DNA from: Candidatus Eiseniibacteriota bacterium
Lineage (GTDB): Bacteria; Eisenbacteria; RBG-16-71-46
DNA length: 54,657 nucleotides
Reading direction: 5' to 3'
NCBI GenBank assembly: GCA_044222065.1
Contig: JBGAOA010000024.1
Coordinates: forward strand, 1 to 54,657
Below are positions 30,001 to 39,000 of the stretch, one piece after another (the stretch's first letter is position 1; each line of letters opens with the position of its first letter). A program made the position numbers.

Positions 30001-33000
30001 GGACGGGCTACGGCCACTACGAGATCACGACGCCCCCGCTCAGCGATCTCGCCTCGTTCAACCACTTCCTGAACGACCTCTACAACTTCGCGACGAACGA
30101 CTCGCTCGCGCTTCCGGACAGCCTGCGATCGAACACGGTCGAGCACCGTTCGGTGAACTACGCCGGCGGCGTCTCGTACCGCCTGCGTCACGGCATCGTG
30201 GGCGTCGAGTACCACTGGCTCCGCGACCTGCAGGGGGATGACTTTTACGGCGCCGGCCCGCGCCGGATCCTCTGGGACGTGCGCGCCGGCCTCGAGCACG
30301 TGCTGACGCCCGTGCTCACGGGGCGCGCGGGCTATCTCTATCGCTCGGACGATCGGGACGACGAAACGGAGCAGAACGCGTTCGTGAGCCACACGGCGAC
30401 GGCGGGCCTCGGCCTCAAGCACCCCGGCTCTCGCTGGGGGCTCGAGGCGTCGTACGCCTTCGAGTGGGGGATCGCGGATTTCGGGACGCCGAGCCTGCCG
30501 CGCTCCACTCGCCAGCAGCTGGCGGCGGGGCTGCGCTGGTCGTTCTGAGCCCTCCTGCGCCGAGAAAGCGCTTGACAGCTTCGCCACGTTCTCCGAGATT
30601 TCATCGCGACTGGGCGTGGGCGCCGAACCCCGCCGTGCTTTTCTCGGCGTCCCCCTTTACCCGTGACGGACTCGAGTCCGCTCTCATCGGCACTGCCTTC
30701 GTGCGCCCGAGTTCCCCCGCGCCTTCGAGCCTGCCGAACGCCGACACTAAGCAGCGTCGAGCGAAGGGTTTGTCCGTCGGAAAGACTTTGACAGCGTGCT
30801 TACACCATTGGCATCTTGTCGCGGCTCATTGCGTTGAGGTCCGCTGTCGGATCGACTGGAGAGGTTGACACCATGTTCTTGAAAGGAATGCGCTTGCTCA
30901 CGCCGCTGTGCGCACTGGCGCTGGGTGCGTTGCTGGCCGTGCCGGCCTTCGCGCAGCAGCCGGTCCGACCCGCGGCACCCGCCGCCTCCACGTTCGGAAA
31001 GGTGAGCGGCCGGGTCACGGAGCGCGGGAAGGACCCCGTCGCGTTCGCCAACGTCGTCGTCCTCGGCACCAAGCAGGGCACGATGACGGACGAGAACGGA
31101 AACTTCGTCATCCTCGGCGTTCCGGTCGGGGCGGTGCAGATCCAGGCGCAGGCGATCGGCTTCGACAAGCAGGTCCAGACCGTCCAGGTGAGCGCCGGAC
31201 AGACCGCGATCGCGAACTTCAACTTCGGCGAGTCGAAGGTCGTGAAGCAGATGGAAGAGATCGAGGTGCGCGCTGAGAAGCGCATCGACACCAAATCTTC
31301 GACGACCAAGCAGAACATCACCGCCGAGAAGCTCAAGGAGATCCCGGTGGACAACCTGCGCGAAGCGGTCGGAACCAAGGCCGGCGTCGTCGCGCAGGGC
31401 GGGGAGCTGCACTTCCGCGGCGGGCGCGGCGGCGAGGTGAAGTTCCAGTTCGACGGCGTCGAAGTTTCGGACCCGCTGCTCGGTCGCGGCGCGAACATCG
31501 CGAACCTCGCGGTCGCCGGCACCGAGATCCTGTCGGGCGGATTCGATGCGGAGTTCGGGAACGCGCTCTCGGGCGTCGTGAACGTCAGCACGCGCGAAGG
31601 CACCGACCGCTTCGGCGGCGAGGTGCGCTGGGACACCGACCGATACGGTGATCCCACGAAGACGTTCGACAACTACGACCGCTTCACGTTCGGCTTCGGC
31701 GGTCCGACGCCGGTGAAGAACCTGACCTACTTCGCGACCTACGAGGGCAGCTTCCAGGACACCTACCTGCGCTCGTCGCTGACGCGGCCGAGCACGACGC
31801 TGTTCGACTTCCTGCGCTTCGGCAATCGGCAGGACAACGTCGTGAACACGAACCTCAAGTTCGCCTACCGCGTGAACCCGAAGAACAAGGTGACGTGGGA
31901 GACGATCAACAACCACACGATCCGCACCCCGTACAACCACATGTGGAGCCGGAAGGGCTTCGTGAAGGTGGAGTACGACACGACCGCCGGCGTCAACGGC
32001 GCCCCCGACACGTACACGCCGGTGTACGGCGCCTGGTCGGGCACGCAGGTGGATTCGACCTACCTGCCGATGAACTTGCCCGATCACATGCCGACGCTCG
32101 ACGACCGCTACCGCCAGTACACGGCGGTGTGGACGAGCCAGCTGTCCGACAAGACGGTGTGGTCCACGCGCGCCTCGAATTTCCGCTTCCGCACGCGCTC
32201 CTCGGTCGGTCGCAAGGAACCGTGGGAGTACGACACGCAGAGCCCGTTCTACTGGTCGGGCAACACCGTCGTCGAAAGCGAGAACAACCCGTACTTCGCG
32301 ACGCACGGCGACTTCCCGCGCTACACGAAGCGCGACGCCTCGACGTGGACGCTCAAGAGCGACATGTCCACGCGCCACTGGCGGGCGCACACGTTCAAGA
32401 CCGGTCTCGAGGCGAAGTACAACCGCGTCGAGAACCTCGACCTCACGCTGCCGAACGTCGAGACGAACGGTCTGCCGGGCGGCTCGCGCTCGAGCTACGT
32501 GAACTTCAATCCCGAAGGCGCGGCGTACGTTCAGGACCGGTGGGAGTTCGAAGGTCTGGTGCTGAACGCCGGCGTCCGCTACGACCTCTTCACGCCGGGC
32601 GAGCAGATCACCGATTCCGACCTCAAGAGCGGGGTTCGCTACAAGCAGCAGTTCAGCCCGCGGCTCGGCATCGCGTACCCGATCTCGGACAAGGACGTGC
32701 TGAGCTTCCACTACGGCTGGACCTACCAGACGCCGTCGCGGAACTTCGTGTTCGAGAACCGCGGCGTCACGACGTCGGTGGCCGTGCGCGGCAACCCGGA
32801 CCTCGAGCCCGAGACGAACATTGCGTACCAGGCGGGCGTGCAGCACTTGTTCTCGCGCGACGTCTCGGGGCAGTTCGCGGTGTTCTTCAAGGACATCTAC
32901 GGGCTGATCACCGTGCGCCAGGAGAAGGACCAGTTCGGAAACCTGGTGCAGGCCTACTACAACGGCGACTACGCGAGCTCGCGCGGCTTCGAGGCGAGCA

Positions 33001-36000: not shown

Positions 36001-39000
36001 CGAAGTACCCGGTCGGCCGCTACCGCTACGTGGACCGTGAGGTCAAGAACGGTTTCCTCTACTTCTACGCGGTGACCGCCGCGGATTCGTCGGTGTCGTC
36101 GAGCGGTGTCGCGACCGAGCTCGAGGGCCGGCGCGCGGCCGTGGAGGCCGAAGGCGTCGTCCCGCAGATCTCCGCGCGCGCGCTCGGCGCGGGCGGCAAG
36201 GTGAGGGTCGTGCCGAATCCGTACAAGGGTTTCCAGGATCCGACCGCGCGTCCGTCCTCGTGGGACCTCACGCCGAACGCCTCCGATCCGACGGGTACTC
36301 ACGTGGACTTCATCGGATTGCCCTTGGGGCGGTGGACGATCCGCATCTACACCGTCTCGGGCGACCTCGTCACCGAACTCCACTCGGAGGATCCGGTGAA
36401 CGAATCGGTGCGCGCCGAGGTGTCGCTGCCGAGCGGTCAGGTCGTGCCCGGGTACAACCGACAGCAGGACACCGCGAACGACGGCCAGGCACGCTGGAAT
36501 CTCATTTCCCGCAACGGCCAGGACGTCGTCAGCGGGATCTACATCTTCACGGTCGAGGCCGAGAACGGCGACGTCGAGCGTGGCAAGTTCGTGGTGATTC
36601 GATGAGACCGGATGAGCGAAGGAGGAACCCAGTGAAGAGAGCGATCGCGGTCCTGTGCCTGTCCGGCCTGCTGGTCCCCGGACTCGCCGGTGCCGCCAAC
36701 ATCTTCGAAAAGGTCGGGACGTTCGACGGGCAGTTCCTGAAGATCGGCGTCGGCGCACGCGCGTCGGCGATGGGCGGTGCGTTCGTCGGCGTCGCCGACG
36801 ACGCGTCGGCGATCTACTGGAACGCCGCCGGCATCACTCGCATCGATCCCGACAAGTCCGAGTTCAGCTTCAACCACGCGTTCTGGCCCGCGGACCTCAA
36901 GTTCACGCAGGCCGCGTACGTCTTCCACGTGAAGCGGTTCCCGGGGGCGTTCGGCGTCAACGTGCGCGCGCTGTACATGGACCCGATGGAAGAGACGACC
37001 GCGTTCCAGCCGAACGGCACGGGCAACACGTTCGACGCGGGCTACACGAGCGTCGGGTTCACGTACGCCCGTTCGTTCACCGACAAGTTCAGCGCCGGCG
37101 GAACGCTCAACATGATCCACCTCGGGCTCGCCGAGTTCTCGCAGCAGACGACGTCGTTCGACGTCGGCACGCTGTACGACGTCGGCACGCTCGGGATGCG
37201 CATCGGCATGTCGATCTCGAACATCGGCTCGACCGTGCAGTTCATCGAGCGCGAAGGCCGGATCCCCGGCATCTTCCGGGTCGGCACGTCGTTCAACCTG
37301 CTGCAGGGGGCGGACCAGCGCCTGATCGGCTCGTTCGAGTTCTCGCATCCGCCGGACAACTCGGAGCGCGTCAACGTGGGCGCCGAGTACTCGTTCCAGA
37401 AGTACCTGTTCGTGCGCGGCGGCTACAACGTCAACTACGACGCCGAGGGCCTCGCGGGAGGCATGGGTCTGCACGTCCCGGTGTCGATCGTCGGCCAGGC
37501 CGATGTCGACTACGCCTTCACCGACATGAAGGACCTGGGCGCGGCTCACCGCGTCTCGCTGAGGTTCCTGTTCTGATCCGCCTTCCGGTGGCGGAATGAT
37601 TCGCTCCTTCGCTCATCCACGGACGCGCTCCCTCCGGGCGCGTCCGTTCTTTTTCGCGGCCGTGATCGCCCTCGCCGTCGCCGGAGCCTCGCCGGCCGTC
37701 GCGGCGCGACGCATCGAATGGCCCGGCGCCGTGCCCTGGAAGGTCGGCGGTCCCGTCGGCTTCACGGTGGACGCCGCGACGTTCCCCGACAGCGCGGGCT
37801 ACCGGCTCGATGTCTACGTGCGCCTGCGGCCGGCCATGATCGCCACGCTCGCCCGGGGTGAGCGGTTCGCGAACGGGCTCCGTTTGTCGGCCTCGCTCCA
37901 GCTCGATGGCAAGGGGCGCGCGGACGTGTTCGAGCAGACGCTCTCGTTCACCGCGGACGACACCCTTCCGGGCTTCGGGCGCGTCGTCCAGTTCAGTTTT
38001 CGCACGCACCCGGGCACGCACCGGCTGCGGGTGAGTGCCGAGGGGAAGCGCCGCCTGCTCGGCGGGGGCACGGGGCGGACCTCGGTGGCCGAGGTCGAGG
38101 GCGAAGTCGTGGCGCCCGACCCGCAGGCGCGGCGCGACGTGTCGGACCTCGAATTCGTGTGGTCGAGCGGCGATTCGGCGGTCTCGCGCGCGTTCGAGCG
38201 CGGGGGGACGCGCCGCGTGCCGAACCCGGAACGTCTCTACGGATTGCTCGCTCGCGAGGTCCGCGCGTCGTTCGTCGCGCGCGCGCTCGAGGGCGACGAG
38301 CGGCCGTGGCGCTGGGTCGCGCGCCTGCTCGATTCGACCGGTGCGACGATCGCGGTGCGCGAGACCACGGCCGCTCGCGGGCGCTGGCTCCACGGCGACG
38401 TCGAGTTCGACGTCGCGTCGGAGTCGTCGGGCGGGTACGAGATCGAAGTGAAGGCGTGGCAGGAGGGCGATCCCGGAGCGCTGACGCGCCGATCGCGCTT
38501 CAGCGTCGCGTGGCACCCCGAGACGTGGAACCGCAACCCGCGCGATCTTGAAGACGAAGCCCACTTCCTGCTCTCGCGCGAGGACGAGGACGAGTTCGCG
38601 ATGATGCTCGCCGGCGAGCAGGAGCGATACCTCGTGGACTTCTGGAAGCAGCGCGATCCCGATCCGTCGACCGGCGTGAACGAGGCACGGGAGAGGTTCC
38701 TCTCGCGCGTGGACTTCGCGAACCGCACCTACGGCCGCTTCGGAGTCGAGAAGGGCATGTTCTCGGACATGGGCCGCGTGTACATCCGCTACGGCGAGCC
38801 GAACGAAGTGCATCGTGCCGTGATGCCGGGCCGCGACAACGAACTCGAGCGCGTCATCGCGCAGTACATCACGCCCGAGGACCGGCCGGTCGGCGACATC
38901 GAGGACAAGCAGCTCGGCGCCGACATGCGCCCGTTCGAGCTGTGGATCTACCAGGGCGATCTCGCGCCGCCGCCCGACGCCGATCCCGGCGCGGGCGGGC

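Follow-up and report, generated by a model that had tools for sequence, protein, structure and literature searches.

The window, by which we mean the whole 54,657-nucleotide stretch analysed here from an uncultured sludge bacterium of Candidatus Eisenbacteria, encodes three consecutive genes on its forward strand: a TonB-dependent transporter (TBDT, 916 aa, 30873-33623), a 986-aa partner protein ending in a long type IX secretion system (T9SS)-type tail (33645-36605), and a 314-aa outer-membrane barrel of the PorV/PorQ family (36632-37576). We put at about even the chances that their products form a TonB-dependent uptake complex without SusD, in which a T9SS-exported co-receptor stays docked on its own barrel. 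The called genes are separated by 21 nt between TBDT and partner and 26 nt between partner and barrel, an operon-like packing; among relatives the first gap has a median of 32 nt (n=27) and the second one of 25 nt (n=64). The barrel gene begins with a GTG behind AGGAGG, with an alternative ATG at 36602. Contigs from RNA libraries span both junctions, which is weak evidence because such libraries can contain DNA. The trio sits in a conserved five-gene cluster that opens with a 542-aa protein and closes with a GWxTD gene, and the housekeeping genes polA, prfB, pfk, gap and pgk surround it.

Conservation across relatives is high. Among related loci that could be judged, the TBDT lies 5' of the partner in 56 of 61, the barrel directly 3' of it in 69 of 75, and both flank it in 54 of 58. 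A barrel orthologue was found in 117/121 genomes of a phylum sample, and the cluster is phylum-core. Median identity is 74% for the TBDT (53 loci) and 72% for the barrel, beside 75% for GAPDH and 77% for PGK; such housekeeping-level conservation, among housekeeping neighbours, is unusual for a nutrient-specific system.

A preliminary description had proposed that five loci of this genome repeat one plan. All three genes are present at four of them, on the window's own contig (C55) and on C80, C84 and C38, while C51 has a TBDT and a partner, with rpmB directly after the partner and no barrel. The order TBDT-partner-barrel applies to C55, C80 and C84; C38 instead reads TBDT, barrel, a 388-aa protein, partner. 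The reported likeness of about 70% between the C51 and window partners was reproduced (70.6% identity over 950 aa), as were the barrel identities (27.6-36.9% among themselves, 25-27% to the PorU-linked barrel) and the glycan-utilisation setting of C80, where two PF10091 (GH144-type) genes, a LacI gene and a sugar ABC transporter lie around the trio. Segments and a common C-terminal ~130 aa had been described as shared by the partners; hhalign extends the relationship, making them a single family along most of the protein. The family profile matches the C38 partner with probability 100 (562 columns), the C80 partner with 99.9 (472 columns) and the N-terminal half at C84 with 99.5 (309 columns). 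This family counts 1011 representatives at E<=0.001. Two further full-length members, on C23 and C89, have neither a transporter nor a barrel beside them, and these, like the barrel-less C51, run counter to the uptake reading. Nor, in a tree of nine barrel paralogues, do the transporter-linked copies come out as a resolved clade, which likewise counts against this reading.

The partner carries a Sec signal peptide without a lipobox. Its best Pfam match is FlgD_ig at E 0.12, so that, as first described, no domain is found at E<=0.1; nor do the best 120 relatives have one, and a single relative does carry the UniRef name 'T9SS type A sorting domain-containing protein'. The structural model had been called poor; built with AF2 from a 78-row alignment it reached a pLDDT of 90.1 and a pTM of 0.88. 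It contains a galactose-mutarotase-like supersandwich (33837-35219), beta-rich middle domains (35220-36179) and then the tail (residues 846-986, ~140 aa, 36180-36602). The best VIA match to the model is 1lf6_A (Z 18.6, rmsd 3.0, 252 aligned), and no catalytic (alpha/alpha)6 domain was seen in it. Within the supersandwich lies an acidic cluster of the DxDxDG type (34167-34271), whose acidic residues D175-D209 are near-invariant. The same fold occurs also in non-sugar proteins, for example the periplasmic domain of YidC (VIA rank 43), so we treat sugar binding as a lead only.

Against the curated Por_Secre_tail model the tail scored 14 bits, under the cut-off of 23. The genome has ~200 T9SS-type tails, and a control HMM trained on 174 canonical ones matched the partner's tail with E 5.7e-7, in agreement with the original assignment, and on this profile similarity the tail is homologous to the genome's T9SS-type class. 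The genome also encodes SprA (512 bits, one frame) and PorU (468.8 bits), with a general PorV adjoining PorU on C77. No GldL or GldM was detected in the genome by a search in which the controls gave no match either. The partner itself was considered as PorZ and rejected (18.6 bits where the cut-off is 260, the match confined to the tail). A better PorZ candidate, of 754 aa and 51.5 bits, lies on C51 and matches the PorZ model beyond the tail.

The barrel gives the weak Pfam matches noted before (UPF0164, PorV and the FadL-type Toluene_X), but its membership is firm in NCBIfam, where NF033709, the PorV/PorQ family, scores 183.7 bits over a cut-off of 90. The PorQ model (76.4 bits) outscores the PorV model (63.7 bits), each below its cut-off, and an assignment to PorP/SprF was discarded (19.4 bits against 90.55). 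Complex prediction with barrel residues 22-314 and partner residues 845-986 gave scores of 0.92, 0.92 and 0.92, the best of three controls reaching 0.00; the mark used for this score was reached by 116/157 solved complexes and 2/215 mismatched pairs. The runs share at least 98% of contacts, with a partner pLDDT of 71-72, and the predicted interface takes in partner residues 854-864, 888-909 and 955-986. The prediction therefore docks the tail on the neighbouring barrel. This result may stem from likeness to solved PorV-tail structures rather than from binding by this copy.

In the TBDT a signal peptide is followed by CarboxypepD_reg (31002-31241, 60.7 bits), a TonB-box-like EEIEVRAEK (31254-31280), the plug (31296-31577, 26.6 bits) and the barrel (TonB_dep_Rec_b-barrel, 97.1 bits), each Pfam score being above its cut-off; the plug and the TonB-box-like motif are both conserved in relatives. 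The SusC/RagA model, whose cut-off is 368 bits, gave 48.5 bits, and this identity was rejected. A SusD_RagB search of the genome returned no match, with a positive B. thetaiotaomicron control. Genome-wide, a gene encoding a T9SS C-terminal domain (CTD) lies directly 3' of 5/14 transporters compared with 123/3284 other genes (Fisher p 1.2e-4). A cobalamin riboswitch (89.8 bits) precedes one of these pairs, an arrangement that points to import.

The earlier reading of these loci as counterparts of SusC/SusD is partly supported by the tail homology, SprA and PorU, the predicted docking, the CTD enrichment and the lack of a SusD match; T9SS export, tail retention, contact between partner and transporter, import as the direction and the substrate we infer. 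The partner would pass the inner membrane via Sec and be exported by the type IX system through its C-terminal domain. The tail would remain uncut on the extracellular loops of the private barrel, as PorZ does on PorQ and PorU on PorV, and would hold the putatively calcium-binding, sugar-binding-type supersandwich next to the transporter. There it may capture a substrate, probably a glycan, which the plug-gated transporter would take up using TonB energy.

It is also conceivable, though we think it rather unlikely, that the partner is ordinary T9SS cargo, shuttled by the barrel and cut by PorU, and only loosely serving the transporter as a released or LPS-fixed extracellular protein that binds or degrades glycans. 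The ~200 tails of the same class are presumably cleaved, PorU is encoded, and the transporters on C29, C60 and C122 have CTD-bearing neighbours without a private barrel. However, no other region of the partner is as well conserved as the tail (0.66 compared with 0.52-0.55), which carries two near-invariant insertions, and a general PorV is already encoded beside PorU. Among solved chains the tail is closest to two retained ones, those that end PorU (6za2_A, E 5.1e-4) and PorZ (5m11_A, E 9.5e-4), and the missing (alpha/alpha)6 domain also counts against this reading. We regard it as highly improbable that the barrel acts as a FadL-type channel through which hydrophobic compounds pass, placed beside an unrelated partner by co-regulation or chance. 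The barrel's Toluene_X match (E 3e-4) and the relatedness of PorV-family proteins to FadL, noted in passages of PMC12578637, would allow it, but partner and barrel adjoin in nearly all judgeable loci at the short median spacing given above, four paralogous pairings occur within one genome, the family score is twice its cut-off and the predicted interface stands far above its controls.

A role other than import appears unlikely. The Oar-type transporter might export, or partner and barrel might form an attachment unit like PorZ-PorQ or a scaffold like BamG-BamH. Oar of M. xanthus is reported to be needed for PopC secretion (PMC6434023), and the phylum-core standing of the cluster, its housekeeping-level conservation and neighbours, and the preference of the barrel for the PorQ model all fit such a role. 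Yet the paralogous trio on C80 lies in a nutrient context, the better PorZ candidate is elsewhere, the plug and TonB-box-like motif show the conservation seen in importers, and the riboswitch-controlled transporter has a CTD-bearing neighbour of like kind.

Our literature search found no description of a module of TBDT, partner and barrel. The claim of a new nutrient-uptake module that links a secretion barrel with TonB import needs qualifying, given the precedents in passages of PMC8406197 and PMC10202324. In PorZ-PorQ and PorU-PorV of P. gingivalis a T9SS protein retains its C-terminal domain and sits on a PorV-family barrel (passages of PMC10202324); the window barrel belongs to the same NCBIfam family, the partner's tail is nearest, among solved chains, to those of PorU and PorZ, and docking is predicted. 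In contrast, the window's docked protein is neither PorZ nor PorU, and the pair is encoded together beside a TBDT, with several paralogous pairs in this one genome. Cargo with a type B CTD and a PorP/SprF-like barrel, such as SprB with SprF, whose genes adjoin each other, likewise has a cognate barrel, often encoded next door. Such a PorV-like barrel anchors its cargo on the surface (passages of PMC10202324, citing Gorasia 2022), but the known cases are adhesins rather than transporter partners, the window partner has a type A/FlgD_ig tail, not a type B one, and its barrel scores poorly on the PorP/SprF model.

SusC/SusD, RagA/RagB and BtuB/BtuG of Bacteroidota share with the window a transporter with a CarboxypepD_reg-type N-terminal extension and a neighbouring extracellular capture protein, a putative one in the window. 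Unlike them, the window transporter is not SusC/RagA and the partner is neither a lipoprotein nor SusD-like; its anchor would be the barrel-docked tail, not a lipid. Proteobacterial Slam (type XI) barrels are genomically linked to TonB-dependent receptors and co-receptors; TbpA/TbpB with Slam likewise joins a transporter, a surface co-receptor and a dedicated barrel (passages of PMC8406197). Barrel family and signal are unrelated, however, and the Pfam Slam family DUF560 had no match among the five proteins of the cluster; Slam translocates its cargo and releases it onto a lipid anchor, whereas in the window the barrel itself is the predicted anchor, and the T9SS would carry out export. The likeness to BamA-BamG-BamH is one of arrangement, a 14-stranded FadL-family barrel whose loops bind an extracellular protein and which adjoins a larger barrel (passages of PMC12578637 and PMC12611786), but BamH is there a lipoprotein, BamA forms the large barrel and the complex serves protein insertion.

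The flanking genes are also conserved. The 542-aa outer-membrane-barrel-like protein (28920-30548, an ORF supported by a GC3 gene call) has a signal peptide and a C-terminal Phe, and its gene lies 5' of the TBDT in 43/47 judgeable related loci with a median identity of 41%. No Pfam or NCBIfam model scored above cut-off, and hhalign against the PorV-family alignment was not significant (probability 48.6); language-model look-alikes include FadL/Toluene_X clusters (0.93-0.95), a lead only. Downstream of the barrel gene, within the first GWxTD codons, lies a terminator-like hairpin (37619-37647, forward strand) of 12 pairs, 9 of them G-C, followed by TCTTTTT. The consensus scan alone is weak because it found 7 sites where 5.6 were expected; a single RNA-library contig terminates at 37618, beside the hairpin. 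The GWxTD protein that had been reported to follow the trio (496 aa, 37596-39086) was recovered with TIGR04514 at 71.4 bits (cut-off 28) and a signal peptide, with which its orthologues also begin; the gene is present in 63/67 judgeable related loci. Its model (pLDDT 83.5) shows two Ig-like sandwiches and then the alpha/beta GWxTD domain, and its structural matches are Ig-like only, reaching Z 10.9 and TM 0.26 at most.

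Our gene calls, made in-house from third-position G+C, place five co-directional genes on the plus strand between 28920 and 39086. They encode a 542-aa protein with a signal peptide and a C-terminal Phe (28920-30548), the 916-aa TonB-dependent transporter (30873-33623), its 986-aa secreted partner (33645-36605), a 314-aa PorV-like barrel with a GTG start after AGGAGG (36632-37576) and a 496-aa GWxTD protein (37596-39086). Gaps of 21 and 26 nt separate the three middle genes, and 324 nt lie ahead of the transporter gene. The window is contig C55 of an assembly of 4.2 Mb in 131 contigs with ~70% G+C, and its protein relatives carry the name Candidatus Eisenbacteria. 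The mechanism with the most support, all of it computed, is an uptake complex in which the partner, exported through type IX secretion (T9SS), would stay docked by its C-terminal tail (residues 846-986) on a private barrel beside the transporter.

The partner was scanned in one genome per species with a 24-row alignment, which gave 124 confirmed relatives, and 80 loci were kept. In counts over kin genomes, which are not independent, the barrel lies directly downstream of the partner at 69 of the 75 loci whose flank measures 700 nt or more, the transporter directly upstream at 56 of 61 judgeable loci, and both neighbours are present at 54 of 58. The GWxTD gene is found at 63 of 67 judgeable loci and the 542-aa barrel at 43 of 47. 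The exceptions (L033, L078 and L082-L086) are mostly lower-identity paralogues (40-51%). Median spacing in the relatives is 25 nt between partner and barrel (n=64) and 32 nt between transporter and partner (n=27). The whole stretch from 25768 to 43809 is syntenic across the phylum (loci L013-L092), the cluster being preceded by prfB, a phosphoglucomutase-type gene and MPG and followed by pfk, gap, pgk, tpi and secG. Median identity to the window's cluster proteins is 41% for the 542-aa barrel, 74% for the transporter, 52% for the partner, 72% for the PorV-like barrel and 49% for the GWxTD protein; for the flanking proteins it is 76% (phosphoglucomutase-type), 62% (MPG), 67% (PFK), 75% (GAPDH), 77% (PGK), 65% (TIM) and 64% (SecG). 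The two membrane barrels at 74% and 72% are thus conserved like glycolytic enzymes. A barrel orthologue (E<=1e-40) occurs in 117 of 121 genomes across the phylum (116 of 120 without one genome marked unpublished), in 101 of 103 high-quality genomes and in 60 of 62 genera. The full cluster is also found in records labelled Limnocylindria and Saccharimonadaceae (L019 and L054), where transporter and barrel are 71-76% identical and the content looks Eisenbacterial, which suggests mis-binned contigs or mislabelled records.

Pfam recognises both the plug and the 22-strand barrel of a TonB-dependent transporter in the 916-aa protein, with TonB_dep_Rec_b-barrel at 97.1 bits (cut-off 27), Plug at 26.6 (cut-off 23.9) and an N-terminal CarboxypepD_reg at 60.7, all above the Pfam cut-offs. 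Ahead of the plug the orthologues keep the motif EEIEV(R/T)AEK, which may correspond to the TonB-box consensus. As a SusC/RagA protein the transporter reaches 48.5 bits on TIGR04056 against a cut-off of 368, over its N-terminal part only, and the SusC/RagA model has no match above cut-off anywhere in the genome. SusD_RagB (PF07980) has no match in this 94%-complete genome, with a positive control in B. thetaiotaomicron. With the transporter under the cut-off and no SusD-family match, a SusC/RagA and SusD/RagB pairing was rejected.

The barrel matches the PorV/PorQ family model NF033709 at 183.7 bits over residues 34-313 (cut-off 90). Judged by sequence it is a member of this family and an orthologue of neither PorV, whose model (NF033710) gives 63.7 bits against an equivalog cut-off of 250, nor PorQ (NF033711; 76.4 bits against 220). 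Seven further paralogues score 101-176.8 bits on NF033709, eight in all lying above the cut-off, and a ninth, distant barrel on contig C99 falls below it at 51.5 bits. One of the eight adjoins PorU (1426 aa; 468.8 bits, cut-off 420). The tree of the nine paralogues is star-like, its sole pairing being that of the window's barrel with the one on C38 (82/88), and so it neither supports nor rules out a transporter-linked clade. Slam-type (DUF560) type XI secretion was also considered for the cluster, and no DUF560 Pfam match was found at E<=1 among the five proteins.

No Pfam or NCBIfam family matches the partner above its cut-off. Its relatives number 1011 at E<=0.001, 465 at 1e-10 and 120 at 1e-30 among 1.84 billion representatives; one of ten distant family representatives bears an Eisenbacteria name, the others being nearly all without name or taxon, and a look-alike in the Atlas, from Cloacimonadota, is a lead only. 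The AlphaFold2 model (78-row alignment; pLDDT 90.1, pTM 0.88) shows a galactose-mutarotase-like supersandwich at residues 65-525. The best structural match by VIA is the N-domain of a bacterial glucoamylase (1lf6_A; Z 18.6, rmsd 3.0, 252 aligned); behind it rank mutarotases and the N-domains of enzymes from GH94, GH116 and GH65. Foldseek with the whole partner against the PDB returned only low-TM matches (0.07-0.20), to glycoside hydrolase N-domains, and no relative across the whole length. An enzyme of the GH15, GH94, GH65 or GH116 type was rejected, as only the N-domains align (Z 14.6-18.6) and the catalytic (alpha/alpha)6 barrel is absent; the model has four helices in total, at residues 483-524. 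A near-invariant, DxDxDG-like acidic cluster runs from D175 to D209 and suggests what we presume to be calcium sites. The signal peptide has no lipobox. PorZ (NF052228) matches at 18.6 bits against 260, over the tail only, and the partner has a supersandwich instead of two beta-propellers.

In the AlphaFold2 model the tail contains seven strands at residues 854-985. It was not accepted as a curated type A C-terminal domain (TIGR04183/PF18962), giving 14 bits and E 0.038 in NCBIfam against a cut-off of 23; in Pfam, where the cut-off is 27, Por_Secre_tail has no match and FlgD_ig reaches just E 0.12. The PorZ model matches with its final portion at E 5e-4. A first tail HMM, started from two tails above the Por_Secre_tail cut-off, picks up 207 proteins among the 3302 genes that we called in the genome. 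A control HMM, trained on the 174 best tails of the genome with the partners excluded, finds 206 at E<1e-3 (~6% of the 3302 genes) and matches the window's partner at E 5.7e-7 and 26.7 bits. Its E values for the partners on other contigs are 1.6e-7 (C51), 9.7e-9 (C80), 7.9e-7 (C84) and 1.1e-3 (C38), and for the tail of PorU 1.7e-13. These values place the partner's tail within the genome's T9SS-type class, as a divergent member with two insertions. The tail is also the partner's most conserved region, with a mean identity of 0.66 against 0.55 and 0.52 elsewhere, and the two insertions have 0.70 and 0.68. When the partner-family profile was compared with all PDB sequences, the best two matches were the C-terminal domains of PorU (6za2_A, E 5.1e-4) and PorZ (5m11_A, E 9.5e-4).

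Complex prediction with barrel residues 22-314 and tail residues 845-986, with an alignment for each, scored 0.92 in three of three runs, and the best of three controls scored 0.00; this mark is attained by 116 of 157 solved complexes versus 2 of 215 mismatched pairs. At least 98% of contacts are common to the runs, with a partner pLDDT of 71-72. On the barrel side the predicted interface comprises the N-terminal segment and loops 26-38, 85-89, 114-138, 164-169, 202-212, 269-272 and 299-303, and on the tail side the conserved strands 854-864, 888-909 and 955-986. The prediction supports binding of the tail to the extracellular face of the barrel. Structures of PorV with a bound tail exist, so the docking result may reflect only a likeness to solved complexes.

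We analysed 61 proteins from eleven stretches of the genome (tblastn, blastp, NCBIfam). The preliminary description had counted five loci with one plan. Four of these hold all three genes: the window, C80 (transporter 889 aa, partner 1095 aa, barrel 348 aa), C84 (transporter 943 aa, two ORFs of 454 and 499 aa that differ in frame, barrel 353 aa) and C38, where the order differs (transporter 915 aa, barrel 337 aa, an NHL-type protein of 388 aa, partner 691 aa). The fifth, on C51, has a transporter 60% identical to the window's and a partner 70.6% identical over 950 aa, followed by rpmB, and lacks the barrel. The C80 locus neighbours two PF10091 genes, of which one encodes a T9SS tail, and also a LacI gene and genes for a permease and a sugar-binding protein. 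The two ORFs of the C84 partner (L006, 5486-8481) lie 135 nt apart; they could be two genuine genes or result from a frameshift or from an error in the assembly. The partners had been thought to share just segments and a C-terminal ~130 aa; profile-profile comparison revises this, as they are homologous far beyond the tail. Against the family profile the C38 partner gives probability 100 (E 1.8e-47, 562 columns), the C80 partner 99.9 (E 2.6e-35, 472 columns) and the first C84 ORF 99.5 (309 columns), and the second C84 ORF matches over the tail only (98.9). Full-length family members on C23 (765 aa; L002, 3213-6769) and C89 (786 aa; L003, 5514-9241) adjoin neither transporter nor barrel and are each followed by a Big_5-domain protein, a context that points to a separate conserved sub-type. 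In a FastTree of 80 family rows the C55 and C51 partners are sisters, those of C23 and C89 form their own clade, and those of C38 and C80 sit on long branches.

SprA is encoded in the genome (C118; 512 bits within a single frame of 2201 aa), as are PorU and eight or nine barrels of the PorV family. GldK gives weak matches only, none above cut-off; the GldM and GldL TIGRFAM models have no match in the genome and their controls were equally silent, so absence is not implied. Among 14 transporter genes of at least 650 aa, five are followed directly, and on the same strand, by a tail-bearing gene, compared with 123 of 3284 other genes (Fisher p 1.2e-4); with either side counted the figures are 6 of 14 and 231 of 3284. 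At C38 and C84 the tail-bearing gene is two or three genes off. On the minus strand of C51 (41348-43612) lies a 754-aa tail-bearing protein that matches the PorZ model beyond its tail, at positions 487-550 and 608-740 (51.5 bits, under the cut-off). On this likeness it is a candidate for the PorZ of this phylum, which makes a PorZ-like role for the partner less likely.

With a tail of the same class as so many other proteins of the genome, the partner could be ordinary cleaved cargo; on the other side stand the high conservation of its tail and the fact that the tail's best PDB matches are those of PorU and PorZ. PMC10202324 describes PorU and PorZ as retaining their tails and thereby sitting on PorV and PorQ, respectively, and proposes retention for type B cargo with PorP/SprF. 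The barrel itself might be an unrelated FadL-type channel, a reading against which stand its match to the PorV/PorQ model, its place next to the partner in most related loci and the predicted tail docking. In BamG-BamH-BamA, as PMC12578637 and PMC12611786 present it, a FadL-family barrel holds a surface protein next to a larger barrel. The module could also serve in export or in assembly of the surface. PMC6434023 reports export by way of an Oar-type transporter, and PMC8406197 describes dedicated barrels of Slam/type XI secretion that are genomically tied to TonB-dependent receptors and their co-receptors. What fits a nutrient-specific uptake system least well is the housekeeping-grade conservation of the window's copy.

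The uptake complex with a tail-docked partner would combine two known kinds of assembly, the TonB transporter assisted by a co-receptor and the docking of a tail on a barrel of the PorV family. Full-text literature outside the subscription journals yielded no paper on this module, nothing on GWxTD and nothing joining Eisenbacteria and type IX secretion, and none of the matches listed for PorV, TonB-dependent and type IX secretion concerns the module. TonB-dependent transporters with surface co-receptors are the chief nutrient gates of Bacteroidota and many pathogens, and to our knowledge these co-receptors are so far all lipoproteins. If the proposal is true, a T9SS-exported co-receptor that keeps its tail and is anchored by it to a private PorV-like barrel would add a third design for such gates, and PorV paralogues would gain a role outside secretion. 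It would also explain SusD-free polymer uptake by abundant, uncultured soil and sludge phyla, of which the present genome, with its share of tail-bearing proteins, is an example. It is possible, if rather doubtful, that PorV-family barrels are general docking sockets and the T9SS tail a permanent subunit-attachment module, from which SusD-less FCB relatives build TonB uptake complexes out of secretion parts. The window's copy would then be a housekeeping-grade, possibly essential phylum-wide surface machine, made of the transporter, a docked partner that binds glycans, two barrels of the FadL superfamily and the GWxTD protein, with a substrate central to Eisenbacterial life.

The GWxTD protein scores 71.4 bits on TIGR04514 (cut-off 28) and, in Pfam, 25.9 bits on GWxTD_dom, slightly below the cut-off of 26.9. 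Structural matches of its model are to Ig-like domains only, and structure comparison gave no lead for the GWxTD domain proper. The 542-aa barrel has no family above cut-off in Pfam or NCBIfam, its family finds nothing better than E 0.41 among PDB sequences, and profile comparison with the PorV family gives no significant match. By language model it resembles FadL/Toluene_X clusters, and two barrels of the FadL superfamily may thus be present in the gene cluster.

Four sludge metatranscriptome libraries, from two studies or more, contain contigs that match portions of each of the five genes, mostly at an identity of at least 99%. Some of these contigs span the junction of transporter and partner (33518-33697) or that of partner and barrel (36453-36837; 36494-36772). 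As RNA libraries may contain DNA and the contigs give neither strand, level nor a single transcript, the support from expression is weak. Neither the window nor any of the C51, C38, C80, C84, C23 and C89 loci has a riboswitch or other RNA family that reaches the Rfam gathering score. A strong terminator-like hairpin on the plus strand (37619-37647; 12 pairs followed by a T-run) lies just 3' of the barrel gene, where the GWxTD gene has its first codons; at 37618, next to the hairpin, one RNA-library contig terminates. It may be a partial terminator between the transporter-partner-barrel genes and the GWxTD gene; as 7 such sites turned up in the scan where 5.6 would be expected, we simply note it.

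Elsewhere in the genome, C29 (L097, 5095-8849) has a cobalamin riboswitch (RF00174, 89.8 bits) ahead of the genes for a TonB-dependent transporter of 675 aa and a tail-bearing protein of 468 aa; the tail of the latter exceeds the Por_Secre_tail cut-off with 23.4 bits. On C99 (L100, 1239-3493) the distant PorV-family barrel has a 4-nt overlap with the end of a 436-aa protein, to which the first, self-trained tail HMM assigns a divergent terminal tail. The two are a candidate for another cargo-barrel pair, here with no transporter.
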